Below, piece by piece: positions 3,346 through 29,949 of a stretch of DNA of 29,949 nt (positions within the stretch are counted from its first letter, which is position 1; every line of letters begins with the position of its first letter). Made by a program: the position numbers and the translations under genes. Location of the stretch: positions 1-29,949 of the IMG/VR virus record IMGVR_UViG_3300038393_000548, one strand, 5' to 3'. The stretch comes from a virus. Lineage: Duplodnaviria > Caudoviricetes. The notes under the pieces were generated by a model, which was not told where the DNA came from, did no database searches, and was given only the letters and a program-made list of their open reading frames with translations.

Positions 3346-6300
3346 TTACTTGTATTCAACAGGTTTTCCCATAAACGGAGCTAGTAGATCAAGGAAATCA
3401 TTTCCCTGTCCATCAAAGATATTTACAGCTTTACCTAAAGCACCTGTCTGATTCAATAGGTATCGTGTGATTCCTTCAGCTTCTTTATCTTTGTAATAAA
3501 CAGGTTGATTATTAAAGAACTGCTTATTCAAAGACAGTTCGACAGGAGCCTTAATTGTCGGAGCCGCCATACCTAAAGCAGATCGTGCTGTGTCACCTAA
3601 GCCTGTACCGAACATCCCCAAGTCATTCATCGGCAACGCCCGAACAGGAAGCCCGATATTTGTTCCTGGTAGATGGATATAGTTATCAGTCTTGTAAGAC
3701 TTATTACCATCTTTCACATCTTCGTTGAAAGCATCCATCACCTTTTTGTAAGTCGAGTAGTACCTTGGCTGCTGCATAAACTGCTGAATCTGAAGCGGTA
3801 AATTGTTCTTCGTCCACATCCAGAACGGTGCGACAGTTCGCATCACATTGTCGCCTTTACTTCGTTCCGTGTAATTAAACAAGAACTTCCGAACCATGTC
3901 TCCGGCTTTATCTAAAGAATTTGTTTGCTTGTATCCGTGTAGGAACAAAGCAAGCCGGGAGAAATCATCGATACGATCACCTACTGTACGCATACCTTTA
4001 ACAATTTTGTTATCATTGATGGCTCCGCTTATCTTCGAAAGTACATCGTCTTTAGGTTTTGTGAACTGTGAACGAACGAAATCGGAGGAAAAACCTGACC
4101 CGAAAACACCTTTATCGTAAGCCGCCTGAACGATTTTTTGTTCTTCAGTCGATAGGTTACCCAACTTCATTCGTTTAAGAAGGTCGCTGGCGGCATTGTA
4201 ACTACCCACTTTTACACCTGCCAAGGTGTTATTTGCGATATTACCGATGAAGTTGTTTACATAGTGGGCAGGAATCGCAGTCGTGACAAGGGACTTCCAA
4301 ATATTGACTACTTGGTTCATCTTATCCAGAAGGTTATTCATACCCTTATCTGTAAACAGTTCCCGGACATTTTTCATCCCTTCGAATACATCCTTATGGA
4401 TCATCGTCCCCGGTTCTAAACCTAAAGATTTAGCTTCATCAGCATTCAGTTTATGGTAACCTTCACTTCCAGCATGAACTTTCGTATGGGAAAGCTCTGT
4501 CGATGGTTTAGCTAACAGACCATCTTTTTCCATTTGGCTAAAGAGTTCAGCCATCGTGCTAGATCGAGAGGATTTATAAGCCCGGTAGCCCAAGGCATCT
4601 AAAGGATTTCGTTCGAACAGTTTCGACAATTCAGCAGCTTCATCTAATTTGCCTGCTTGTGTCAAGCCGTGAATTGCATCTTCAAGCTGTGCAAAGTTGT
4701 CGAAGCCTGTACGTGCTTTACCGAAATTGTTAGCCTGCGAACGTCCAATGATTCTGGAAAGCTGCTCTTTAGTCAGATTCGCGCTGTCTTTTGAGAGAAC
4801 GTGCGGAAAATAGTTTTCGATAAGATTCGACACGGTACCTGAAGCAAGATCGCGTTCGCCCCATTGCTTCAAAAGTGGTTTGATTTGATCCGCAGCCGCT
4901 TTTACTTTAGCTTCATTGATAGTCGTTTTATCGAAAGCCTTTGGAAAGGCATTTTCGATTGTATAAACGACTGCTTTCTTTTCGACTTCCGTGAAGTCTT
5001 TCATCGTCTTAGCTACTTTACGCAGATCATCATTCGCCTGACGAATCCGTCCATGGATTTGCGTTTCTGCGTTTCGTAAATCGCCTGCTGACTTGTTAGC
5101 CAAAGCATCAGCCGATTTGAACGTTCGGGCATCGAATGGGTTAACTTTTGAAACCATGTTTCCAAAGTCAGATTTCCCACCCATATCCTGTACAAATTTA
5201 TTCAAGTTAACTAAAGGATCATTCACAACAGGTTCGGCATCTATAACGTTACGCGGCTTAACTGCCCGCTGCGCCACGGTTCCGGCTGTAACAGAATCAC
5301 CCTCCAAAGCAAGTTTTCCTAAAATATCTTGTAAACCTTGTTCGCTGACATTTGCTGGAAGCCCTGTTACTCTTGGCACTGGAAGCTCATCAAAGACTCC
5401 TTTAGTTGCTGGAATGGTTCCATCAAAAAGTTGAGAAGCGTCCGTAAAGTATTTCGAAACATCATCAACAGGCGTATTCTTCGGAATTTTTGTCAGTTCT
5501 TCCTGTAGATGTTTTAATCCTTGTGTTGTTAAATCTGAAGCGGTATTAACACGGTAATTATTTTTTAGAACTTGAGCCATTTGATCGGAATTGAGTCCTG
5601 CTTTTTGGAATAAATCACTAACCGCTGCGGCTCCTGTGTCCCCAATCTTAGCATCCTTAATTTTGAAAAATTCAGGCTTTTGCCCGAACTGTTTAGTGAT
5701 TTTTGTAAAAGGTACATCAAAATTAATCAGTGCATTTTGGGTCTTATTACGTGCTGCGGCGGCGGCATCTGCTGCGTATTGTACAGCTTTTTCGCCTGTA
5801 AGACCTAATTTTCCAGCTTCTTTAGCCGCAATTTGCGCGGCTTTAGCTCCGGCTTTAACTGCCGAACCGCTCCCGAATGTTACTAAGTTTAGTGGATCAA
5901 AGAGAATATCCCCTTCTAAACCACCGATTTTCTCAAGGTATCCTCCCGGTTTTGCCCCAAGATTCTTTAAAGTGTCCCCGAATCCTTTACCTTCAGTACC
6001 GATGCCGTGCAGAAATCCAAATCCAGGAACGTCGCCCCAAGAAAGCTTACCGTCTGTCCAATCACCTACCTGCGCTTTTGCGCCTTGCATAAGGGATTCA
6101 GCAAAAGGAATATCTTTCCAATCTAAATGGTGGTCTGACCAGTTGGCGAATTGATTCGTTACCAATTTACCTGTAGAGGAAATGCCCTCTAAGGCTTTCA
6201 GCCATAGAGGGGTTTCATCACCGCTGCTTCCTTTACCGCCGAAAGTCATAGGGGGAATACTTGGCGCATCCCCTAAATGATCTCCGTAAACATTATGCAA

Positions 6301-19838: not shown

Positions 19839-20040
19839 AATTTCGTGCAATCGCGGCGTTTGCCCACATAATTGCCGTTTCAAGATTCGTCATAGCAACG
19901 GACTTTTCACGACTATTCGGGCAAGATTCTTCAATCAAGTAAGCCAATTCTTTAGCTTTTTCTCGTAACTCATGATACGCTTGAATTTGTTCAGGTGAAG
20001 GTGCATGATACCTAAAATTGTTTTCGATTTGTGGATTCAT
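19837..20040 (-). CDS. Acb2/Tad1-like helical hairpin protein (candidate immune-signal sponge)
   Basis: NNFRYHAP...CPNSREKSVAMTNLETAIMWANAAIAR resembles the SRE-x-x-x-A-x-T-x-(L/V)-E-x-A-x-MW hairpin shared by Tad1/Acb2. Confidence 0.68.
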   Translation of the reverse strand: MNPQIENNFRYHAPSPEQIQAYHELREKAKELAYLIEESCPNSREKSVAMTNLETAIMWANAAIARN

Positions 20041-20043
20041 GGT

Positions 20044-22029
20044 TTACATTCCCCTATTCATATTATTCATCGCTGCGCCTGCACTTATTGGTGCATCTTG
20101 GCCTGCTGCTGCGGGAGCCTGTCCAGTACCGGGAGCGACGTTCAAACCGTTGTCAGTATGTTCCAAAAGCATTTGATTATCGATCTGCTTTTGAGCAAAA
20201 GCCTGTTGCATAATCTGTTCCAAAGTTTGGTAAATTACGCCTTGGTCTTTGCTGTTCATCGTGAAGCTGATTTCACCGTTTGGCATGATTTTAGGCGGCT
20301 GCTGTGCTTCACGCTGTGCAAGAATAGCGGCATCCTTCTTCATCCGAGCTAAGATTTCCGGCGCGATGGAGAAGTTTTTCATGCGAATCCATTCCTGCGG
20401 AGTCATTACGGCAGGCTGGAAGTTGAATTGTCCTTGCATCTGCATAAGGTTATCGGCTTCTTGACTTTTAAGTGCCTGCGTCATCGGTGCCACGGCATAG
20501 GTATCGCACTTAACCAACCATTCCAAGTTATCCGCATCCAAATCTTTGATCGGTTCAAAATCTACATACTCTACGGTACCGTCCGGCTGTGGGATAGCTA
20601 AAGGGCGTGCATCTTTCCATTTACGGAGAATAAAGTGCATAATCAAATTGGAAATTTGTTCGACGAAATCATCGACCTGAAGCATTTTATCTTTGTCACG
20701 GACGGTTGCTCGTTCAATCAGCGCATTCACGCCAGTGGATGTGGTGAGTGATCCGACACTTTGACCCGTATACGCTTCATTGATTCCAGCCATATCTTTA
20801 ATATCAGCTTTCATTCTGTCGCTAATCTCCATCAACCCGCGCGGGATTTCAGGCGGCTGTACGTTGTGGATGGATTGGCTAGGGTCTTCGTTGGAAGTCC
20901 AAACTTTCCCCGGCATCGTCCCGGTGCGCGCCAATTCCTGAGCATTGATACCTGAAGATCGAGAAACGACTTTCTGCGGGTTTTGGTGCATTGTTGCGAT
21001 GATGGAAGCTGTTTGGTCTGATTTATTAAGAACCTTTTGATTTTCTAAGGCATCCATCGCTATAGAAGTACCCCAAAAATCTTGGTCTTCTTCTTCATCG
21101 TAATAAACTGCGAACGGATAAATATTTGGCTTTACATCTTCCAGACGGAGAAGGAACCAGTTATTGTTTTTTGTGTAATAACTTACATCCAAATGCCAAC
21201 GACCATCTTCACCTAAATAACGTTCCCAATGTGTGTGTAGCGTTACCATTTCATCCCCGCGAATACGTGCCAAATTGTTATTCGGCTTGTTGTCACGGTC
21301 AAGGTAGGAACCATCTGCTGCGTCTTCTTTATCCGTTTGGTCGCCATGCATTTCATCAAATGCTTTCAGACCTAAAGGATGATTTTCTTTCACGTATTTT
21401 CGGAAAGCCTTATTGTTACGAATGGAGCTAAAGGGAAGTAATTCTGTCGTATCAATCCACTTACAGTCTTGTAAACGGTAAGCATCCGGGTCAGGGAAGA
21501 AGTTGTAAATCGGATACTGCTTGACGCAAATTTTACCTTGAAATAATTTGTTTTCAGGATCATTTTCACCCTTGTATGTACCACCTACGTATGTATCATC
21601 TTCGTATACATAAGCGATGGATGTTCCTAAAAGTCCGGCGCGGTCAATACAGCGGCGAATCGTCTTTGGAACTTTTTCCCAATGCCATACATGCTCGTAG
21701 CCTTTTTTAAGCTGATCCATAATTTGCTTGTAGCGGGTATCTAAAGGAGAAATTTGCACCATCGGAATGGAGCTTGCAAGGTTCGCCCGCTTTGTTGTGC
21801 GGAGAAAACGGATCATATTCGTAACAGGCTTCGGTACCCATGGCGGGATGTTGGAGTTTTTCCACTGTTCTCCACGATCAAAAGTATCCAGTAGTGTCCA
21901 TTTTTGCTGCTTTCCGACTACGCCCTGCTGCGCCGAACGGAATCTTGTAAAATACTGGTTTACAAGCTGTGCGGGACGGTCTTTCTCCTGAGCCTGCTCG
22001 TTGACTACCGTTTGTGCCGGACTGCTCAT
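20044..22029 (-). CDS. Portal protein (P22/podovirus-type)
   Basis: 661 aa; GEQW...KPVTNMIR, FFPDPDA, YPFAVY...FWGTS, MAGINEAYTG motifs; Q/M-rich tail; follows TerL. Confidence 0.9.
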   Translation of the reverse strand: MSSPAQTVVNEQAQEKDRPAQLVNQYFTRFRSAQQGVVGKQQKWTLLDTFDRGEQWKNSNIPPWVPKPVTNMIRFLRTTKRANLASSIPMVQISPLDTRYKQIMDQLKKGYEHVWHWEKVPKTIRRCIDRAGLLGTSIAYVYEDDTYVGGTYKGENDPENKLFQGKICVKQYPIYNFFPDPDAYRLQDCKWIDTTELLPFSSIRNNKAFRKYVKENHPLGLKAFDEMHGDQTDKEDAADGSYLDRDNKPNNNLARIRGDEMVTLHTHWERYLGEDGRWHLDVSYYTKNNNWFLLRLEDVKPNIYPFAVYYDEEEDQDFWGTSIAMDALENQKVLNKSDQTASIIATMHQNPQKVVSRSSGINAQELARTGTMPGKVWTSNEDPSQSIHNVQPPEIPRGLMEISDRMKADIKDMAGINEAYTGQSVGSLTTSTGVNALIERATVRDKDKMLQVDDFVEQISNLIMHFILRKWKDARPLAIPQPDGTVEYVDFEPIKDLDADNLEWLVKCDTYAVAPMTQALKSQEADNLMQMQGQFNFQPAVMTPQEWIRMKNFSIAPEILARMKKDAAILAQREAQQPPKIMPNGEISFTMNSKDQGVIYQTLEQIMQQAFAQKQIDNQMLLEHTDNGLNVAPGTGQAPAAAGQDAPISAGAAMNNMNRGM

Positions 22030-22337
22030 TGTTCAAATCCCCCTTGATCTTGCCACATTTGTTTTTGTAAACTCATCCATTCAATCTCTTCTACTGTTAA
22101 ATCAGGTGTTGCCGACTTAACTTCTTTAGCCTTTTTTGGCTCCGGCTTCTGACGGATGACTGCCCTCATATCGTGAACGTTCATAATACCTATAGAACTG
22201 TCTACGATAAAATTCTCGATTTTCCGCTGCATCGCGTGAAGAATCAGTTTGTAATCATCATTAGTTAGTTCGAAAATCAGATAACTGCCGTCGCGGTAGT
22301 AAATTGCGTAAGGGTTGGTTACTTTTTTAGTTGCCAT
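22026..22337 (-). CDS. Hypothetical protein
   Basis: 103-aa ORF coupled to the portal start. Confidence 0.7.
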   Translation of the reverse strand: MATKKVTNPYAIYYRDGSYLIFELTNDDYKLILHAMQRKIENFIVDSSIGIMNVHDMRAVIRQKPEPKKAKEVKSATPDLTVEEIEWMSLQKQMWQDQGGFEQ

Positions 22338-22341
22338 AAGA

Positions 22342-22614
22342 TCAGTCCTTTTGATTCTGACATGTAATTTGCGTACCTTGAGTCCAAGGAATAAAGTCTT
22401 TTCCTAAAGTGCGCTGATACTCTGTTAGTTTAAATGATTGCACAGGTTGAAGACCAAAAAGGCGTTCGGCTTCCTGTAAAGCCTTTATAATATCGGGAAA
22501 GGCTTCGAATGTAATTGTTGTACCTAACACATCACCGAACCAAAGTTCGATTGTGCTATTATTACATTTTTTAATTTCAAAACCATCTATACCAATTCGA
22601 TTTATTTTAGACAT
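22342..22614 (-). CDS. Hypothetical protein
   Basis: Start MSKINR at 22614 with SD AGGAGG, overlapping the TerL stop. Confidence 0.65.
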   Translation of the reverse strand: MSKINRIGIDGFEIKKCNNSTIELWFGDVLGTTITFEAFPDIIKALQEAERLFGLQPVQSFKLTEYQRTLGKDFIPWTQGTQITCQNQKD

Positions 22615-24115
22615 AATCGAGAAAACCTCCTTTAGATTCTTCATCTTCGTATTCGTATTCGTCGTCGGTCTTTAGGTTGTAGCGTTTAGGCGGCGCGAAA
22701 GCGTCGTTTTTCAGATCGTCGGGATTCTCAGGTAAACGCATGAGGTTATACCTCAAGCTGTCCATCGCGTGATCGTCTTTTTTGACAGGCTTTTCGTCCA
22801 AGTTTTTGTTCGTATCATCCATGGTAATTTCAGGAAATTTATAATTAAGACCTTCTTTAATCGTATTTACGCAGGATCGGAAAATTTTCAGTTTACCACG
22901 TTCGATGTACGAGTTTACACGCAAAATTCCGGCTTCAATCTCATTATTTGCGGGCTGAAAGAATAGATCGTACTCTGCATAAAGAGCTTGGACACTTTTA
23001 CCGTTGATCGGATCGGATTTATTCTTAGCTGAAGGATCGATAACCATATGCCGGATCAATCCCGCAGGGATTTCGTTGATTGTTGGCTTGATACCTTGAG
23101 CATGTTCGGGAACTAAAGTATTAGGTTTGTAGTATTCCTTGTAGAGATAGGCTATACCTTCCTTCGGATCAATCGCAAGGTACGTAACAGCCGTTGGATT
23201 TCGTAAACCATGGTCTAAAGCAATCCCACGTTCCCATGTTTTTGCTATTTTGTCGAAATCAGGTATGTCATCAATAATCGCATTCATGAAATTTGGGTAA
23301 ACCATACCTTCGCTGTGTTCAAAACTTCCTTGCAGGAAGCGTTTTATCCACCAAAGCGGCTTCCCTTTACTGTTGATTTCGATAAAGTTACGCGGCAGGT
23401 ATTTATTCAGGTGCGTTGCCCATACAAAAGTGGTTACGAATGGGTTGTAATCTTCATGTTCAGGGTGCTTTGGATTACGACGAAGGTCGTTATCAGGGAA
23501 AATCTCTTTAATCCACCCTAAATCCGGGTTGGAGCAAACCATAAACAGCTTATTTTTGACGAATGGATCGCGTAAACGGGTTAAGATTTGATCGTAGATC
23601 GTCCGTTTTATCCCTGACGCTTCCTCCATATGGCAGATACCTGCATTAATAGATCGGAGTTTTTCCTCATCATCTGACGGGATCGTATAAAAGACAAATC
23701 CATTGATAAGCTCAATCTCTCCATCAGACTTATTATAACGTTCAATAAGAGGGGGAGGACAAACCTCATTAAAGAATGTTTTGAGAGTCGTTCGTTTAAG
23801 TTGTTGGAGAGTCGGAGCAGTAAGTAAGCCAGTACCTTTTGGATTTTCAAGCGCACGTATTAAAACCTCCGTTAAACTTGATCTCGACTTACCCGAACCG
23901 TATCCCCCGAAGGCTCCCACGATTTGTGTATCGATTTCCCATTGTCCTGTATCTTCGTTGAAGGATTCTGTGTATTCAACTTCATGGATTCCCTCCTGAT
24001 AATCCTGCGGAGTATAAGTAAGTTCAATAGCTCCACAGTCCGGGCATTGAAGGTATGCAGGATGATTATTTGCCGGGGGCTGCATGTAGCCTACGTGACA
24101 CTGAAGACATTGCAT
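22607..24115 (-). CDS. terL: Terminase large subunit (PBSX/terminase_3-like) with N-terminal Zn ribbon
   Basis: Walker A GGYGSGKS, Walker B CHMEEAS, motif III CSNP, nuclease IALDHG...IDPSA...DDHAMDSLRY. Confidence 0.95.
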   Translation of the reverse strand: MQCLQCHVGYMQPPANNHPAYLQCPDCGAIELTYTPQDYQEGIHEVEYTESFNEDTGQWEIDTQIVGAFGGYGSGKSRSSLTEVLIRALENPKGTGLLTAPTLQQLKRTTLKTFFNEVCPPPLIERYNKSDGEIELINGFVFYTIPSDDEEKLRSINAGICHMEEASGIKRTIYDQILTRLRDPFVKNKLFMVCSNPDLGWIKEIFPDNDLRRNPKHPEHEDYNPFVTTFVWATHLNKYLPRNFIEINSKGKPLWWIKRFLQGSFEHSEGMVYPNFMNAIIDDIPDFDKIAKTWERGIALDHGLRNPTAVTYLAIDPKEGIAYLYKEYYKPNTLVPEHAQGIKPTINEIPAGLIRHMVIDPSAKNKSDPINGKSVQALYAEYDLFFQPANNEIEAGILRVNSYIERGKLKIFRSCVNTIKEGLNYKFPEITMDDTNKNLDEKPVKKDDHAMDSLRYNLMRLPENPDDLKNDAFAPPKRYNLKTDDEYEYEDEESKGGFLDYV

Positions 24116-24298
24116 TTACATCACTCTTTCTCCGATGCGGTAAAAGTGTCCATCGTCACCGCGACAGATTAAAGGTTGACCACATTTATTACAGTTATAG
24201 AAACCTGTTTTTGTATCATTCCAATCTTCAGCCATAAGATCAATCAAATGTTCGCCACATGGACAGCTTACGTAGATATATTTGCTGATCAGTTTCAT
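24116..24298 (-). CDS. Small zinc-finger protein
   Basis: CPCG and CNKCG; SD GGAGTG supports start MKLISK at 24298. Confidence 0.65.
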   Translation of the reverse strand: MKLISKYIYVSCPCGEHLIDLMAEDWNDTKTGFYNCNKCGQPLICRGDDGHFYRIGERVM

Positions 24299-24302
24299 AA
24301 AA

Positions 24303-24830
24303 TCACTCCGTTGAAGGTTGTTCGGCTTGCTGTAGTTGGGATTCATGCATTTCCTGTTGTTGGATAATGTTATTGTCGTGTTGTTCTTGTGCCTGCGCTG
24401 TTTGCTGTTGGTGGGTTTGTTGTTGCTGTTCCATTTGTTTAACTAAAGCAAGCTGTTCAAGTCCGACCCGCTGTTCGTCGGCTTCAGCTTTGCGACTCTC
24501 CAAATGAAGCTTATGCTCCATTTGTTGCTTTTCTAACTGCTGTTCAAACTGCTGCGCCATAATATCTAAAGCATGTTGATGATGCATCTTTTGCCGTTCA
24601 ATTTCAAGTTGCGCTGCCGGATCGGATTGCGCTGCGCGGGCTGTTCGTGACTGCACCATCCCGGTATGAAGGGCTTTAAAGACTTCCGATAGCGGGGCAA
24701 GAGCTTTTGTCGCTTCGAACGTGCTTTGACTTTGATTGAGAACCAAAGACATTTTTGTTAAAACATCATTGACGACAACCGCGATGTGTTTTTCGGTCAG
24801 CTCTAGTGGGTCTTGTGGGTTGTTTATCAT
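24303..24830 (-). CDS. Gln/His-rich coiled-coil protein
   Basis: 175 aa; C-terminal half Q-rich; coupled to its neighbours. Confidence 0.7.
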   Translation of the reverse strand: MINNPQDPLELTEKHIAVVVNDVLTKMSLVLNQSQSTFEATKALAPLSEVFKALHTGMVQSRTARAAQSDPAAQLEIERQKMHHQHALDIMAQQFEQQLEKQQMEHKLHLESRKAEADEQRVGLEQLALVKQMEQQQQTHQQQTAQAQEQHDNNIIQQQEMHESQLQQAEQPSTE

Positions 24831-25177
24831 TCCATTACCTCCGATTTAAAGCTGTCACAAACTGCCTTGAATAAAGAGTCTTTTGTGCGCTGATATTTCG
24901 GCAATTCGTCATAGCGCATAATACAAGGATGTGTCTTTAGTTCGGGGTTCTTTTCTTTGCCGTAAACCCAACCTTCTTCTAACTTCTGCTTCAGCCAGTT
25001 TTCGTGCGACATTTCAGGTGTTACATCGTTTTCTAAATGAAATTTCACACCGTTTATTGCGCTGCTTTTCTGCCATTCGGGAGCATCTTCCCAAGCAGGC
25101 TGTGAGTGATCGTTTTGTGAGATGCAATAAGCTCGATTAACTTCATGACAAATTTTTGCAATTAATTCAAGATTCAT
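24827..25177 (-). CDS. Stand-alone RyR (ryanodine receptor repeat) domain protein
   Basis: SHENWLKQKLEEGWVYGKEKNPELKTHPCIMRYDELPKYQRTKD is the RyR domain signature (H-x-x-W...GW-x-YG...K-x-HP...Y-x-x-LP...KD). Confidence 0.88.
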   Translation of the reverse strand: MNLELIAKICHEVNRAYCISQNDHSQPAWEDAPEWQKSSAINGVKFHLENDVTPEMSHENWLKQKLEEGWVYGKEKNPELKTHPCIMRYDELPKYQRTKDSLFKAVCDSFKSEVME

Positions 25178-25398
25178 ACTGGCGATACCTCCTTAAAATG
25201 GGTGAAAAGATGTTCCCACCGGGAAGCGGGGTTGTTTATGTAGCTACCTACGAGAAGTACGGGCGTATCTGAAGAGTACCCTCTCAGCATGTCGCCATGA
25301 TACACGTAAGGGCATTGGGCGCGATCAAGTTCTTCTTCGGTGATATATTCCACATATTCCCTAAAATTACCTGCAATAATAATCATTTTAGGTTGCAT
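25174..25398 (-). CDS. Hypothetical protein
   Basis: Probable start MQPKMIIIAGN at 25398, overlapping the upstream stop. Confidence 0.6.
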   Translation of the reverse strand: MQPKMIIIAGNFREYVEYITEEELDRAQCPYVYHGDMLRGYSSDTPVLLVGSYINNPASRWEHLFTHFKEVSPV

Positions 25399-25634
25399 CA
25401 AAACACCGCTTTCCCTATGAAAATGAGGATTAGTAGTCGTGCGATAATTCCTATAGCAAAACCCCATGCATTTCGGTCTTCTTTCCGAAATTTTTCGAGT
25501 ATATAAGCTAAAGCATCGGATGTGCTTGTTAATATTAAAGCAACTTTAAGGAATATTAGCATCATCCCCAAATACACCACCCTACGCAAATTCCTAAACC
25601 AAAAGTAAGTTCTCCATAGAGAATCCATGCCCAA
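25398..25634 (-). CDS. Small membrane protein (start uncertain, possibly 25565)
   Basis: Two hydrophobic segments; in-operon position. Confidence 0.5.
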   Translation of the reverse strand: MGMDSLWRTYFWFRNLRRVVYLGMMLIFLKVALILTSTSDALAYILEKFRKEDRNAWGFAIGIIARLLILIFIGKAVF

Positions 25635-25652
25635 AATGGAACTTCTTTAGTT

Positions 25653-26081
25653 TTAAACATCAGCGGCTTCCTCCTGTGGGCGTGGTTTGATTTTTGGGCG
25701 TTGGATTTGGTGCAAGACGATCACTTTGGAGTTATCTTGTTGATTGAATATTCCGGCGAGTTCGTTGATCTGTTTTGCTGCCGTGGTGTCGCCTAACATA
25801 GCTTCTTTTTGCAGGGCTGTGAACGCTTTCCGGGACGCGATTTGTGAGTTAAATGCCATCTGGCTTTTTATGTAAGACTGAACGGTGTCCATCTGAAGAA
25901 ACTGCTGCCAAAGGTCTTTGTTTCCGATTTGAAGTTTTGCCGTCAACTCGATAGGGCTTAAATGTAACGCGAAATCATTAGTATCAAATTCATCTGCTAA
26001 ACGTAAAAATACGTCTTGTTTCTCTCCTGCTAAAGTCTGAAAAGTGCTGCTATTTTGCAGCATTGCTATTAATTGAGCCAT
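25653..26081 (-). CDS. Putative terminase small subunit
   Basis: 142 aa, helical; ALQKEAMLGDTTAAKQINELAG oligomerisation-type helix pair and C-terminal VIVL strand; upstream of TerL. Confidence 0.5.
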   Translation of the reverse strand: MAQLIAMLQNSSTFQTLAGEKQDVFLRLADEFDTNDFALHLSPIELTAKLQIGNKDLWQQFLQMDTVQSYIKSQMAFNSQIASRKAFTALQKEAMLGDTTAAKQINELAGIFNQQDNSKVIVLHQIQRPKIKPRPQEEAADV

Positions 26082-26590
26082 ATCCCATTCTCCTTTCGGA
26101 AAGTTTCTACAGCTTTGCTTGCATCTTCTAAGTCTCCGTAATATCCAAGATCATTGTAAGTACCGTGTAATGTAACGGCTGCTCTCCACATCGATCTTAC
26201 TCTATCCCAAGTAACATTTCTTACACCTGAGGAATTTCTTGTATCTGCCTTACCTTTTCGATTATGACCATTTTCGGAATAGTTTACCAAACGTAAATTT
26301 TCTAAACGGTTATCTAAAGGATTATGATTCCGATGGTCAACTAACTTTGATTCAGGGGCATCTGTTAACCAACGATGAAACATTACATTTTGTTGTTTAT
26401 ACTTTCCGATTTTAAGTCCACCTGAAATATAATAAGTATCAGAAGCTTTAATATGTCGAGCAAACCAAGTATACGGAAATTCGTTTGCTTTATTTAACAT
26501 CTTTGTGTCAATTAAACATTCAAGTATTTGCCCTTTGCATTTTACGTAAATTATAGTAATATCTCCATCTACATAAAAATCATTTTTCAT
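26069..26590 (-). CDS. HNH homing endonuclease with AP2 domain
   Basis: FHRWL...VDHRNHNPLDNRLENLR...N; SSGVRNVTW...WRAAV...LGYYGDLEDA. Confidence 0.92.
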   Translation of the reverse strand: MKNDFYVDGDITIIYVKCKGQILECLIDTKMLNKANEFPYTWFARHIKASDTYYISGGLKIGKYKQQNVMFHRWLTDAPESKLVDHRNHNPLDNRLENLRLVNYSENGHNRKGKADTRNSSGVRNVTWDRVRSMWRAAVTLHGTYNDLGYYGDLEDASKAVETFRKENGIWLN

Positions 26591-26913
26591 AATATTTTAC
26601 CTTCCTTACGAAGTCTGCTGAGCTTATTTCGGATGGATTTTTCGGTTCTAGGAGGTTGGAGCTTCGCTCCAATCTCCTTAGCTGTAACGTTCGTGTTGTT
26701 GTAAAGGTCAATGATGGTCAGAATGTCGGTTTCGGTCAGCTTAGGCCGCGTACCGACGCGATCAGCCGGGGTCATACTATAAGGCGTACGCCGGACGTTG
26801 ATACCGTCTGTACACAGCGGGCAAAACGGCTTCTTTCGGGTGGTCGGTGTCCAATAAATGGTAAACATCACCCGGCAGTCGTAGCAATAGTATTTAGTTG
26901 CGCTTCTTGCCAT
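26587..26913 (-). CDS. Zn-ribbon plus HTH DNA-binding protein (candidate transcription regulator)
   Basis: CYDC...CPLC followed by TAKEIGAKLQPPRTEKSIRNKLSRL; SD GGAGG supports start 26913. Confidence 0.7.
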   Translation of the reverse strand: MARSATKYYCYDCRVMFTIYWTPTTRKKPFCPLCTDGINVRRTPYSMTPADRVGTRPKLTETDILTIIDLYNNTNVTAKEIGAKLQPPRTEKSIRNKLSRLRKEGKIL

Positions 26914-27109
26914 AGTGTTTGGGCTTCCTCCCGGATTTGGAGATAGGTTGGTCACTTGTTATCTGAAGGAAATGGTTGCGGGCTTCGTCTTCAGTTTTAA
27001 ATGTTTTCGAGTGTTGCGGAATGCCGTTTCGTGTAAATCGAACTTGAAAAGTACCGTGTCTTGTTATGAAATATCCTCTAGGGTGTGGGTATTTGTATTC
27101 GAATGCCAT
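26894..27109 (-). CDS. Small AP2-like DNA-binding protein
   Basis: RGYFITRHGTFQVRFTRNG...SKTFKTEDEA pattern; SD AGAGGG. Confidence 0.55.
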   Translation of the reverse strand: MAFEYKYPHPRGYFITRHGTFQVRFTRNGIPQHSKTFKTEDEARNHFLQITSDQPISKSGRKPKHYGKKRN

Positions 27110-27140
27110 CGAATCACCCTCTTTGATAATCTATGATTCT

Positions 27141-27169
27141 AGTATACTGCTATCTGGAAGATTTATCAA
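27141..27169 (-). promoter_or_regulatory. sigmaA-type promoter heading the late/packaging operon
   Basis: TTGATA-N17-TATACT. Confidence 0.7.
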
Positions 27170-27195
27170 GAGCTAGATTAGGGCAAAAAGAAGCC

Positions 27196-27318
27196 CTATT
27201 CGGGCGATTTTCGGGCTTTGTCCTTACGAAGTTTGCGGACTATCCATATTGACTGAAGTTGACCACCGATTAGGCCGATGGTGGATAAGACGATTACGTC
27301 GAGCAGAGTTAGGTTCAT
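27196..27318 (-). CDS. 40-aa hydrophobic peptide with basic tail (absent from the ORF track)
   Basis: MNLTLLDVIVLSTIGLIGGQLQSIWIVRKLRKDKARKSPE; SD AAGGAG; terminator-like AAGCCC...GGGCTT plus T tract at about 27185-27218. Confidence 0.6.
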   Translation of the reverse strand: MNLTLLDVIVLSTIGLIGGQLQSIWIVRKLRKDKARKSPE

Positions 27319-27319
27319 T

Positions 27320-27398
27320 TTGGGGAGTCTCCTTTTTTGTTTATTATGTGTTTACAAGTTGGGGATTATGCTGTATTTGGGGATAGGAAATTTGGGGA
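27320..27398 (+). repeat. Four direct TTGGGGA repeats
   Basis: Copies at 27320, 27359, 27377 and 27392. Confidence 0.7.
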
Positions 27399-27604
27399 GA
27401 TGCAAGGCAAAATGCATGTGTTCCCCCGCGCAGGTTCGCCTGTCGTGGGCGGGACTCCTTTTCGGGCGTACCCCATACCCCTCCCCCGTCACCAATTTAA
27501 TTGCACACAATACAATTATTGGCCTTCAAATCAAGTCAAATCAAATCGCTCACCCATTTACCCATGCTTGTTTACAGGTTGTTTGGGTATTTGTAAAATA
27601 GTTC

Positions 27605-27633
27605 TTGACTTTCTTGTTTACCTGTTATAAGAT
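27605..27633 (+). promoter_or_regulatory. Early sigmaA promoter P1
   Basis: TTGACT-N17-TAAGAT. Confidence 0.7.
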
Positions 27634-27638
27634 TAAGA

Positions 27639-27714
27639 CATCAACAAGAGGTGCTACCGCAGGGTTAACAGTGACTAGGTTGATGCCGATCAAAAGGCCG
27701 GGTTGGTCGCCTGC
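27639..27714 (+). ncRNA. Putative structured RNA cassette 1
   Basis: CATCAAC/GTTGATG stem starting at the predicted TSS; CGATCAA/TTGGTCG hairpin; possible GCAGG/CCTGC pseudoknot; no ORF. Confidence 0.4.
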
Positions 27715-27738
27715 TAGAATATGTAAACAAATTAACGC

Positions 27739-27768
27739 TTGACACGTAAACGGGTTTTATGGTATGAT
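27739..27768 (+). promoter_or_regulatory. Early sigmaA promoter P2
   Basis: TTGACA-N18-TATGAT with extended TG. Confidence 0.85.
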
Positions 27769-27775
27769 GGTTTCA

Positions 27776-27877
27776 GTAAGGCGAACACGGCAGGACTCGA
27801 CGGAAAGGTCGTCTTCATCCAAAACGTTAGCCACAGTCATAGCTAGAGACAATGGAACGCATACCGCATCGCCTTAC
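27776..27877 (+). ncRNA. Putative structured RNA cassette 2
   Basis: Terminal 9-bp stem GTAAGGCGA/TCGCCTTAC starting at the predicted TSS; internal CGAC/GTCG, TCCA/TGGA and TAGC/GCTA helices. Confidence 0.55.
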
Positions 27878-27892
27878 CAGTAAACAAATTGC

Positions 27893-27921
27893 TTGACAAT
27901 CAGTAAACAGTGTGGTATGAT
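27893..27921 (+). promoter_or_regulatory. Early sigmaA promoter P3
   Basis: TTGACA-N17-TATGAT with extended TG. Confidence 0.9.
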
Positions 27922-27929
27922 GAAATCAA

Positions 27930-28023
27930 GGTAAGGCGATGGATACATAGCGGAGCAATCGAATCAGTTGCCCAGAATGGTATAACGGATTGCGCGTATC
28001 GGTGACTAACGAAGTGCCTTACC
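27930..28023 (+). ncRNA. Putative structured RNA cassette 3
   Basis: Terminal stem GGTAAGGC/GCCTTACC with nested GATAC/GTATC and GCAATC/GATTGC helices (rod with internal loops). Confidence 0.55.
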
Positions 28024-28267
28024 ACGCTTCAAACGCATTACATGTATCACGTGTCATGAAAGCAGGCGCTATATTATCTCAGTTATTACAATGCTGTGGA
28101 GGCAGGAGTCGCTCATAACTCCTATATCAAATGAGAGGCGATTCGACTACATAACGCACTCGTTGTGGCGTAGCGAAGTGGCTAAGGCTTTGAAAGGCCA
28201 TTAAAGGGCTTAGGATCAATCCTGAGCGTTTTAATGGCAAGTCAAATCTAATAACTAAGGGAGATGT

Positions 28268-28579
28268 TTGATTATGATTAAAAACGTAACGATGAAAATG
28301 GATGCAATGAGCAACGTTCACTTGGTAGCTGACAAACATGAGATGTTGGTTATGGTATCTTGGGAATGGAATGACTATAGCAACGAATGGTATGGACGCT
28401 ATTCCGTAAAAACAACGCTTGACTTCGCTGCAATCGGGGATCGTTGGGACATTGAATACAAAGCGCGTGAACATAAGCATGAAAATCTGATTAAAGTTTT
28501 AGTTCTCATGGCTACACAATTATTAGACTTGCACAAACCAGCAGCTAAAGAAGTCCAAACTGAGGAAGCGTCCGAATAG
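28268..28579 (+). CDS. First early protein, hypothetical (start may be 28274)
   Basis: SD AAGGGAG; 103-aa ORF. Confidence 0.8.
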   Translation: MIMIKNVTMKMDAMSNVHLVADKHEMLVMVSWEWNDYSNEWYGRYSVKTTLDFAAIGDRWDIEYKAREHKHENLIKVLVLMATQLLDLHKPAAKEVQTEEASE

Positions 28580-28589
28580 GACGCTTTTT
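28566..28589 (+). terminator. Intrinsic terminator
   Basis: AAGCGTCC-gaata-GGACGCTT followed by TTT. Confidence 0.75.
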
Positions 28590-28603
28590 CCATCTAAAGG
28601 AGA

Positions 28604-28906
28604 GTGTATCTAATGAACCGATTCCGCAACTTTATCACGAATCAAGAAGGGCAGCACGTATCCATTATGATGATTGATGGTCGCATTGTAGAAGGTAAAG
28701 CGATTCTTGTCCCTTGTTTTGATAGTTCCGAACCGTTCATTGAAGAAAGTGATGGTGTATGGGTGCAACCTTTGGATGATTCCAAAATGGTGCTTGTATG
28801 GCCTAAGTACAACCGCAAATGGGTTGATGCTATCGAATATGGTGACAATGCTTTCTACGATTTAGACGGATCACGGCAAATGGCTTTCATTAATAGTTGT
28901 GAATAA
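28604..28906 (+). CDS. Early hypothetical protein
   Basis: SD AAAGGAG; 100-aa ORF. Confidence 0.75.
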   Translation: MYLMNRFRNFITNQEGQHVSIMMIDGRIVEGKAILVPCFDSSEPFIEESDGVWVQPLDDSKMVLVWPKYNRKWVDAIEYGDNAFYDLDGSRQMAFINSCE

Positions 28907-28959
28907 CATGTATACTGATTCTCAAAAATGTGTATACTATAACTAAAGGAGTGATTCGA

Positions 28960-29079
28960 TTGAAAAATGCTTATAGCATCATGCTTACATTGAACCGTCG
29001 TTTAACTAAGGAGCAGTTTAAAGCGGAATATTGCCGAATTAGATTGTATATCCAACGAAAGGAGGGCTTATATGTTTAA
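28960..29079 (+). CDS. Small early protein (39 aa; absent from the ORF track)
   Basis: TTG start, SD AAAGGAGTG; MKNAYSIMLTLNRRLTKEQFKAEYCRIRLYIQRKEGLYV. Confidence 0.6.
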   Translation: MKNAYSIMLTLNRRLTKEQFKAEYCRIRLYIQRKEGLYV

Positions 29080-29215
29080 TCGTGAAGAGTTATTCATTAT
29101 CCTTCAGCTTGCCTCTGAAGCTGCTCAAAATGATCCAAGTGACATTAATGCAGCAAAACTAGCTGAAAAGATTCGCACAGAGCTTGGAATAACAACTATA
29201 ATTAAGGAGAAGTGA
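29072..29215 (+). CDS. Small early protein (47 aa; absent from the ORF track)
   Basis: SD AAAGGAGG; MFNREELFIILQLASEAAQNDPSDINAAKLAEKIRTELGITTIIKEK. Confidence 0.7.
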   Translation: MFNREELFIILQLASEAAQNDPSDINAAKLAEKIRTELGITTIIKEK

Positions 29216-29219
29216 TATT

Positions 29220-29432
29220 ATGAAAAAGCCAATCGCGGGATGGGTTATCAGCAACACAGGCAGCTTACTTGTGTGGGATATGCACAATGATGAATCAATG
29301 TTAGTCGGTATCAACGATGATACGCCGGAATGGTGCGAAATTCAACACGCTATCGATGGGGATGAAGAAGTTTACTCCTACATTGACTTTCACGGCTCCG
29401 AATGGCGGCTTGATGGATGTATGCGATTCTAG
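29220..29432 (+). CDS. Small acidic early protein
   Basis: SD AAGGAG; 70 aa, D/E/W-rich. Confidence 0.75.
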   Translation: MKKPIAGWVISNTGSLLVWDMHNDESMLVGINDDTPEWCEIQHAIDGDEEVYSYIDFHGSEWRLDGCMRF

Positions 29433-29485
29433 GACGAAACGCCCCAAAACGGGCGTCCAGCCGTTAAGCGGCTGCTGACGAGTCC
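29432..29485 (+). ncRNA. Type II hammerhead ribozyme
   Basis: GGAC-GAAA-CGCCC(caaaac)GGGCG-UC^-CAGCCG(uuaag)CGGCUG-CUGACGA-GUCC. Complete catalytic core with perfect stems I, II and III; cleavage predicted after C29457. Confidence 0.93.
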
Positions 29486-29511
29486 AATATCTAAAGGGAG
29501 AGTGTTCTATT

Positions 29512-29775
29512 ATGACAACAAAACAAATTATCGCTAATTTCGTAAACGGTGCAACTAAAGGAAAAGCTTCTTCTGTCGAGATTGCAGGCGACCGCCTGTA
29601 CAACTATGCAACGGTTATCGCTCAGCGCATCAACGGTTGTATCCATATTAATACCACTCGCTATAGCATGACCACAACCAAACATCAAAACGTGCTTCGC
29701 CGGGAGATGCCAAATGCACCTACTGTGGACGATGTGCCACGCGGAACAGGCGATTTATCCAGATATATACAATAA
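29512..29775 (+). CDS. Early hypothetical phage protein
   Basis: SD AAAGGGAG; LYNYATVIA...YSMTTTKHQ motif of a recurrent small phage protein type. Confidence 0.8.
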   Translation: MTTKQIIANFVNGATKGKASSVEIAGDRLYNYATVIAQRINGCIHINTTRYSMTTTKHQNVLRREMPNAPTVDDVPRGTGDLSRYIQ

Positions 29776-29801
29776 ACTTGTAAACAGGTTGCCCAAAAAT
29801 G

Positions 29802-29828
29802 CCGGGAAATAAATTGTGTATTTCCCGG
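29802..29828. repeat. 10-bp inverted repeat
   Basis: CCGGGAAATA-N7-TATTTCCCGG in an AT-rich non-coding stretch. Confidence 0.7.
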
Positions 29829-29949
29829 ACAATATTCTGACAAATAGAACAAGTGTACCCCAAAAAATAGGAACAAGGGTTCTGTTTACAAAATGTTGTT
29901 TACAAAAGTTAGTCAAAATTTTTGAGAGATGGATATATGCTTATAGGGA

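Follow-up and report, generated by a model that had tools for sequence, protein, structure and literature searches.

Duplicated early promoters ahead of a structured leader in an uncultured podovirus, one of a clade with swappable leader RNA modules

The DNA analysed here, called the window, is a stretch of 29,949 nucleotides that makes up a linear virus record estimated to be 62% complete. Genes for the terminase, portal, capsid, internal virion protein, tail, endolysin and FtsK are located on its minus strand, and small ORFs of no assigned function run on the plus strand from 28268. The virus belongs to a clade of uncultured podoviruses whose terminases are 51-73% identical to that of the window. 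Among cultured phages of the phage collection, the nearest terminases belong to the Paenibacillus podoviruses API480 and SV21 (38%), and a search of the genome collection with the terminase gave two distant matches only. In API480, no promoter array of the kind described below was found. AP-20-A, a podovirus reported on Sinorhizobium, is described with terminase, portal and FtsK proteins of the same PHROG families (PMC13299392); the search of the phage collection did not bring it up. No phage RNA polymerase was found among the 31 proteins tested from the incomplete record of the window, and a PADLOC search of seven nearby proteins left the five early ORFs among them without a defence match. 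Window DNA was found in soil and rhizosphere sequencing runs, and the runs listed with it include no RNA run. Eight of 11 DNA runs were examined; in these the sequence was near-identical, without listed variants or joints, so the window itself yields no covariation data.

On the packaging side of the locus, an HNH endonuclease gene (26069-26590, minus strand) has been inserted beside the putative small terminase gene. Further along lie a divergent promoter-like site pointing to the packaging genes (27141-27169, minus strand) and a GC-rich patch (27400-27490) that includes a C-rich run and by eye occupies the same place in many relatives. The divergent site and the patch are a candidate packaging or end signal. 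The features of the early region are collected in Table 1.

Table 1. Features in and around the early leader of the window, and folded RNA elements in the leaders of related phages
Feature	Position	Strand	Remarks
Zinc-ribbon protein, possible C-terminal helix-turn-helix	26587..26955	-	PF14369 below cut-off
Six GTAAACA boxes	27349, 27569, 27615 (-); 27723, 27880, 27903 (+)	- and +	Six of the 18 window copies
Weaker fourth promoter-like site	27571..27599	+	10/12 consensus match; just 5' of P1
Promoter P1	27605-27633	+	9/12 consensus match
Unit C1	27640..27718	+	Weak 6-7 bp arm at predicted start; 53% GC
Promoter P2	27739-27768	+	11/12 consensus match; TG (extended -10)
Unit C2	27776..27879	+	9-bp closing helix from predicted start; interior without homologue
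Promoter P3	27893-27921	+	11/12 consensus match, with TG; duplicate of P2 unit
Unit C3	27930..28024	+	9-bp closing helix; 5' arm also pairs with C2 3' arm
Imperfect palindrome	28036..28058		Like the spacer of the last early promoter in L090 and L005
H-type pseudoknot, predicted	28104..28135	+	6 + 5 Watson-Crick pairs; A-rich third loop
Strongest leader fold	28140..28250	+	z -6.4 to -6.5; inverted repeat
First early ORF	28268..28579	+	Closes the leader; no PHROG match
Type II hammerhead ribozyme	29434..29488	+	RF02276, 29 bits (cut-off 37), E 0.004
Hairpin module M1 in relatives	L005 470-540; L090 2714-2780; L115 5995-6056	- (all)	Covariation in three phages
H-type pseudoknots in relatives	L125 1813-1855; L126 1756-1798; L143 1-43; L123 about 5080-5119	- (all)	About 150-200 nt before first early gene; covarying in L125 group

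The early region opens with three promoters in tandem, P1 to P3, each followed by a non-coding unit, C1 to C3. The preliminary description of this DNA had called the promoters strong; all three hold up as consensus promoters. P2 and P3 are the top two among the 27 promoter sites scored in 20000-29949. Several tandem host sigma70/sigmaA promoters thus open the early region, as in the A1-A3 array of T7. The word GTAAACA occurs 18 times in the window, and six of the copies fall within 590 bp around the promoters, where 0.35 would be expected. These boxes are mostly located just 5' of a -35 box or within a promoter spacer. By eye, relatives have different repeats of their own at the matching promoter positions, which suggests that the boxes are operators, and a phage protein likely binds them. 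As a lead only, the nearby zinc-ribbon protein is a candidate for this binding; its atlas neighbours carry a helix-turn-helix at 0.86, under the 0.9 bar. An alignment of the P2 unit with the P3 unit extends from the upstream box to the end of the 5' arm of the closing helix. The array would therefore have arisen by local duplication of a promoter-operator unit plus its flanks, which would explain why C2 and C3 share arms and cross-pair. The imperfect palindrome beyond C3 has no good -35 or -10 box here; it could be the remnant of a promoter, or else another operator.

The gene-free leader behind P1 comprises 630 bases and extends to 28273, past the range first described. The array had been said to hold no ORFs. 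Only short frames of 25-45 aa and the end of a 97-aa frame (27337-27630) overlap it, and no ribosome-binding site was seen before the short ones. The units are GC-rich (49-53%) compared with the promoter stretches (32-33%). No cassette ends in a terminator, and the scanner found no terminator-like site in 27605-28200. The PeSL cassettes of T4-type phages are likewise repeated strong promoter units, able to recombine and shuffle the DNA between them (PMC2839356). However, the PeSL stem-loops are described as terminators in or beside the promoter, preceding ORFs (PMC2839356), whereas the inter-promoter DNA of the window is non-coding and free of terminators. In the absence of such a site and of any credible ORF, membership in this family was rejected.

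The arms of the units start 0-2 nt past the predicted transcription starts. In C2, 27776-27784 pairs with 27869-27877 (nine Watson-Crick pairs); in C3, 27930-27938 pairs with 28015-28023 (eight Watson-Crick pairs and one G-U). Both arm pairs contain GTAAGGC and GCCTTAC, and both units end in ACCA. Helices of this quality begin at 3 of 3000 random window positions. In shuffle tests the arms gave p = 0.005 (C2) and p = 0.02 (C3), values that are not independent because C2 and C3 are copies of one unit. The C1 arm (27639-27645 with 27679-27685) gave p = 0.01 in the strict test and 0.12 when bulges were allowed, and the fold of C1 as a whole is no better than chance (z = 0.03). An arm at each predicted start, as had been proposed, is thus found beyond chance at C2 and C3 and weakly at C1. 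The units had also been called self-closing, which applies to C2 in an RNA that ends before about 27930 and to C3 in an RNA started at P3. It does not apply to read-through RNA. The 3' arm of C2 (27867-27878) and the 5' arm of C3 (27930-27941) are an exact 12-bp complement, as the preliminary description stated, and in read-through RNA this cross helix is predicted with a probability of 0.99-1.0, displacing the units' own stems (0.0) in the kind of alternative fold that had been foreseen. In RNA 27775-28030, the 5' arm behind P2 is predicted to pair with the 3' arm of C3 (0.99).

The interiors of C2 and C3 are unrelated, as claimed; 341 of 500 shuffles align equally well. They had also been thought to fold independently. 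Without the arms, the sense strands gave z values of -0.4 (C2) and +0.3 (C3), no better than shuffles. Two inner hairpins are predicted within C2. C2 is stronger on the opposite strand (-4.2 versus -2.6 for the whole unit; antisense interior -2.5), and where the antisense strand has G-U pairs in the extended C2 helix, the sense strand has A-C mismatches. As DNA, C2 folds on both strands (z -3.0 and -4.0). This folding fits a reading of the stretch as a transcription-primed replication origin or a genome-end DNA element, with GTAAACA as initiator or terminase sites. The strand switch and the minimum of the cumulative GC skew are located here, and in AP-20-A, whose gene set is similar, the terminase genes are preceded by a 442-bp non-coding locus given as a putative oriC (PMC13299392). 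However, that oriC is a prediction in its paper (PMC13299392), and a gene-strand switch alone also gives a skew switch. The boxes occupy promoter-specific positions, and the M1 module of relatives (below) folds as sense-strand RNA and not as DNA. We consider an origin or end element highly improbable.

No known RNA family accounts for the units. Rfam gave no match at E<=10 in 27620-28270 and no family for C1-C3 in searches of the window and its relatives. The preliminary description had suggested CsrA, type III antitoxin or retron mimicry, for which C1-C3 offer no support. GGA motifs number 0, 3 and 3 in C1, C2 and C3 against 1.7, 1.7 and 2.0 expected (p 0.22 and 0.31), so the several GGA motifs noted in the interiors are at chance level, and a CsrB/RsmZ-like sponge was rejected. 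No pseudoknot was found in C1-C3, and no tandem family of 34-50 nt, as in type III antitoxins, was present among the 20 largest of at least 60 direct-repeat families. A likeness of the C1 3' end to a CptI repeat, seen by eye, was judged chance on a rough estimate. ARAGORN predicted no tRNA genes, and a tRNA or tRNA mimic was set aside. Retron ncRNAs have msr hairpins and a long msd hairpin and go together with a reverse transcriptase of their own. The closing helices of C2 and C3 fit an a1/a2-type terminal helix, which is not specific to retrons; there is no long interior hairpin, and no reverse transcriptase was found among the 31 proteins of the incomplete record.

A scaffold of conserved arms with swapped interiors had been expected in related phages, and neither part recurs. 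The arm pair of C2 and C3 was present in 0 of 33 related records, and single-sequence covariance models of the two units matched only themselves in 35 sources (493 kb). A -35 box together with a closing arm was present in none of 31 viral matches to the -10 box plus 5' arm. Searches with blastn against phages and plasmids gave nothing or weak matches in the promoter region (E at least 0.2). Shared 9-mers with relatives numbered 16 against 10.9 +/- 4.4 expected, and the best-tile p values of C1-C3 against relatives were 0.46-0.93. The candidate shared words CACGGCAGG and CCCAGAATG, with GATTGC-CGTA and TAGCGA, were at chance, and a two-word pattern search matched L002 only, its own source. In one sub-clade, the leaders of L146, L152 and L153 (minus strand) have a recurring word, GGGAACTAAG, in several copies per phage.

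The promoter array itself has counterparts in the clade. At least two promoters were found in 10 of 25 non-redundant leader regions, hand-picked from loci with enough upstream DNA (a weak second site in L131 was dropped); five had no scored promoter. Four close relatives have 2, 2, 2 and 3 promoter copies at a spacing of 84-94 bp. The duplicated promoters of L109, L125 and L143 are separated by spacers with 29-41% GC and no closing duplex. Arrays with unstructured spacers and variable copy number mean that a promoter array needs no RNA cargo; the clade builds its arrays via tandem duplication, at times with unstructured spacers. Such arrays would allow the arms and interiors of the window to be duplication relics or decaying inverted repeats, with selection on the promoters and operators only. 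Nothing in C1-C3 is conserved, and the A-C mismatches of the extended C2 helix are in keeping with decay. However, start-anchored helices of 9 bp are rare at random sites, the arms were retained while the interiors diverged to chance similarity, and leaders of relatives show compensatory change. We regard the relic reading as very unlikely.

The leader continues beyond C3 with further predicted structure; its pseudoknot and long hairpin, together with a hammerhead farther on, are the window's strongest folds and fall outside the range first described. Its H-type pseudoknot has a short first loop, and similar ones occur in a similar place in L090 and in L125, L126 and L143. A loose pseudoknot scan showed no enrichment (16 versus 7-17 in eight shuffles); a strict descriptor found 3 against a shuffle mean of 0.2 and was defined after the matches of the loose scan had been seen. 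A long hairpin (28189-28246) lies within the strongest fold, just 5' of the first ribosome-binding site, and is predicted with a probability of 1.0 in long transcripts. It includes a terminator-like hairpin at 28208-28227 and is a candidate RNase III site or weak terminator. By eye and without a control count, hairpins also precede the first ribosome-binding site in L002, L146, L152 and L153. Across the stop of the first early ORF, a hairpin followed by T residues (28566-28590, plus strand), which was not in the scanner list, is likely a terminator. The predicted hammerhead has a full catalytic core and three stems and lies between early ORFs. It scores under the Rfam cut-off and is otherwise like the type II hammerheads known in phage intergenic regions (PMC3088659). 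The Rfam hammerhead model gave one more match in 1 of 33 related records. A pattern search of 14 loci found one hammerhead in L002 (467-528, minus strand) and three in L133 (about 8617, 8296 and 7009, minus strand), all with complete cores between early ORFs and either below the Rfam cut-off or missed by it.

Folded RNA directly behind early phage promoters is known from HK022, whose put RNAs are described as two-stem elements of about 70 nt downstream of both early promoters (PMC9378689). The promoter-proximal folds of the window could accordingly be put-like cis elements that bind the elongating polymerase and read through terminators of the early region; C2 with its two inner hairpins and the terminator-like hairpin near the end of the leader would suit such a role. 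However, putL and putR have sequence in common, whereas the interiors of C2 and C3 do not, and membership was rejected on this ground. The window also differs from HK022 in its long-range closing helix and in the lack of conservation within the clade. A conserved target should hold its ligand conserved, yet no word stood clearly above shuffle maxima among 17 leaders, and relatives have additional promoters further downstream. A put-like function is unlikely.

Among the relatives, folded modules were found in leaders. A comparison of leader segments gave 2 significant pairs out of 528. The hairpin module M1 has an equal predicted fold in L005, L090 and L115, with an invariant internal loop that contains two G-G oppositions. 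Double changes occur at 9 of its 18 pairs (0 of 500 shuffles), a count from three sequences whose structure came from the same alignment and whose inner helix is loosely aligned. A model of M1 matched 2 of 33 whole records, both used in building it. Of 73 matches in a pattern scan, only the three already known loci looked real, and a look-alike in L125 was not recovered by model R1. In the window the model found no M1 (best E 0.38). One of five queries, the segment 28101-28123, is similar to the L005 copy of M1 at its 3' end (best-of-tiles p 0.03); this segment overlaps the pseudoknot and may be an M1 that has been truncated. In L090, M1 sits behind a small ORF, away from the 5' end; this placement and the invariant loop point to protein binding over end protection.

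Other leader elements change between close relatives. The leaders of L125 and L126 differ by two compensatory and two one-sided changes, none of which breaks the fold, and in the pseudoknot of L125, L126 and L143 double changes affect 3 of the 11 pairs, a level reached by 19 of 500 shuffles. A 53-nt start-anchored hairpin in L098 is missing from L131 behind a near-identical promoter. The first units of L107 and L146 (minus strand) share a second leader module (E 0.006 among 528 pairs), for which no convincing common fold was found. In G022, just past the terminase gene (24566-24641, equal to L099 7188-7263, minus strand), a consensus promoter is directly followed by a lone 37-nt self-closing abiF-like RNA (29.4 bits, cut-off 37; E 4.9e-5). 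It is the single such match in 34 records apart from one other weak match (E 0.08), and no Abi_2 gene was found in the 81%-complete record of G022. This RNA is a candidate antitoxin mimic. The idea of modular early RNAs is thus supported at the level of the clade, through the covariation of M1, the pseudoknot, the gain or loss of the 53-nt module and the abiF-like RNA of G022. The leaders of the clade are a fast-evolving site at which folded modules are gained and lost whole.

With moderate confidence, we favour as the best reading of the window a T7 A1-A3-like array that feeds a 5'-protected, processed leader. The preliminary description had named T7-like promoters with 5' stems as the mundane alternative, and it fits the window best. 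Three tandem host-polymerase promoters would give strong immediate transcription into the leader. Helices at the predicted starts of two of the three transcripts would hide the 5' ends from decay enzymes, and cleavage or attenuation of the leader would take place at the long hairpin preceding the first gene. A phage protein at the GTAAACA boxes would likely shut the array off later. Transcription would yield three RNAs that overlap, are protected at the 5' end and share their 3' region, as from T7 A1-A3, and not three terminator-bounded small RNAs; discrete species of about 100 nt would require cleavage in the A-rich linkers and trimming to the stems. The leader would act mainly in cis to keep early output high and stable, and hammerheads would punctuate the message downstream. 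The start sites, 5' protection, repression and processing are steps that we infer from the sequence.

The T7 leader is released as short overlapping RNAs. The window shares with T7 the three tandem host-polymerase promoters, a non-coding leader and a long hairpin before the first gene. It differs in its long-range closing helices, duplicated start arms, operator-like spacer boxes, pseudoknot and downstream hammerhead, and in the lack of a phage RNA polymerase among the proteins tested. Overlapping 5'-clamped RNAs and a processed leader are favoured because T7 entry is driven by host-polymerase transcription from A1-A3 (PMC13128918), RNase III cleaves the polycistronic RNA of T7 (PMC6938266), and RppH of B. 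subtilis requires at least two unpaired 5' nucleotides, with 5' structures stabilising RNA (PMC3997798). The argument from RppH and RNase J is conditional on the host. Tandem early starts with putative small RNAs have been described in another phage (PMC9163698).

Several points count for the protected leader: the lack of a terminator from P1 to 28200, the position of the arms at the predicted starts, the promoter arrays of relatives, the early-region hammerheads and the genome plan, with packaging and structural genes on the minus strand and early ORFs on the plus strand. Others count against it. For protecting a 5' end, a local hairpin would be simpler than a helix whose arms lie 100 nt apart. 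According to the predicted folds, C2 and C3 would lose their own stems in read-through RNA, though the 5' arm behind P2 would then be paired to the 3' arm of C3. Helices anchored at the start are no general trait of the clade; a duplex at p<=0.05 was found at 3 of 35 promoters in relatives (combined p 0.08). The antisense fold of C2 is the stronger one, and the features of M1 point to protein binding.

Protein binding is central to another possibility, in which the units are processed to stable trans decoys of about 100 nt for host RNA-binding defence proteins and the interiors vary as hosts vary. We place this second, as possible but doubtful. The GC content of the units, the covariation of M1 in three phages, the L107/L146 module and the gain and loss of whole modules are consistent with it, as is the lone abiF-like RNA in a record without an Abi_2 match. 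The abiF-motif RNA is described as an antitoxin that neutralises AbiF in trans (bioRxiv 10.1101/2025.04.15.648962), the pseudo-ToxI of phiTE is a precedent for antitoxin mimicry by a phage (PMC3475682), and the dimensions of the 28104 pseudoknot resemble those of CptI (PMC4627078). Type III antitoxins and their mimics are alike in the idea of a phage ncRNA, in one predicted H-type pseudoknot outside C1-C3 and in the abiF-like RNA of one relative. Against decoys, the window has no tandem repeats, no pseudoknot in C1-C3 and no Rfam match, its sense interiors are without homologues and unstructured beyond chance, GGA is at chance, terminators are lacking, and M1 was not found. The abiF-like match is below the cut-off and nearly alone among the records, and abiF-motif RNA (RF03085) has no match in the window's own genome. 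Tentatively, and at the level of the clade, the early leader could be a swappable RNA counter-defence module in which each duplicated promoter launches a stem-clamped RNA released as a decoy. Phages would then gain, lose and replace leader RNAs like small anti-defence genes, and M1, the pseudoknots and the abiF-like RNA would be uncatalogued members of this repertoire. A literature search, mostly without subscription papers, returned no account of such leader RNAs in the clade.

To conclude, the feature is real and had been partly over-read. Early promoters have been duplicated here ahead of a structured leader, and the leaders of the clade carry RNA modules that are swappable and uncatalogued. 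If the leader acts in cis only, an uncultured podovirus clade has rebuilt a T7-like early plan by means of RNA parts (5' clamps, a pseudoknot and hammerheads), and a few uncatalogued structured RNAs are added. If the modules are decoys, they would form a fast-evolving phage RNA anti-defence repertoire at the first-transcribed locus. New defence proteins that bind RNA would then come to light with leader RNAs as baits, and the orphan abiF-like RNA would offer a first example, open to direct testing, of AbiF being countered by RNA mimicry.
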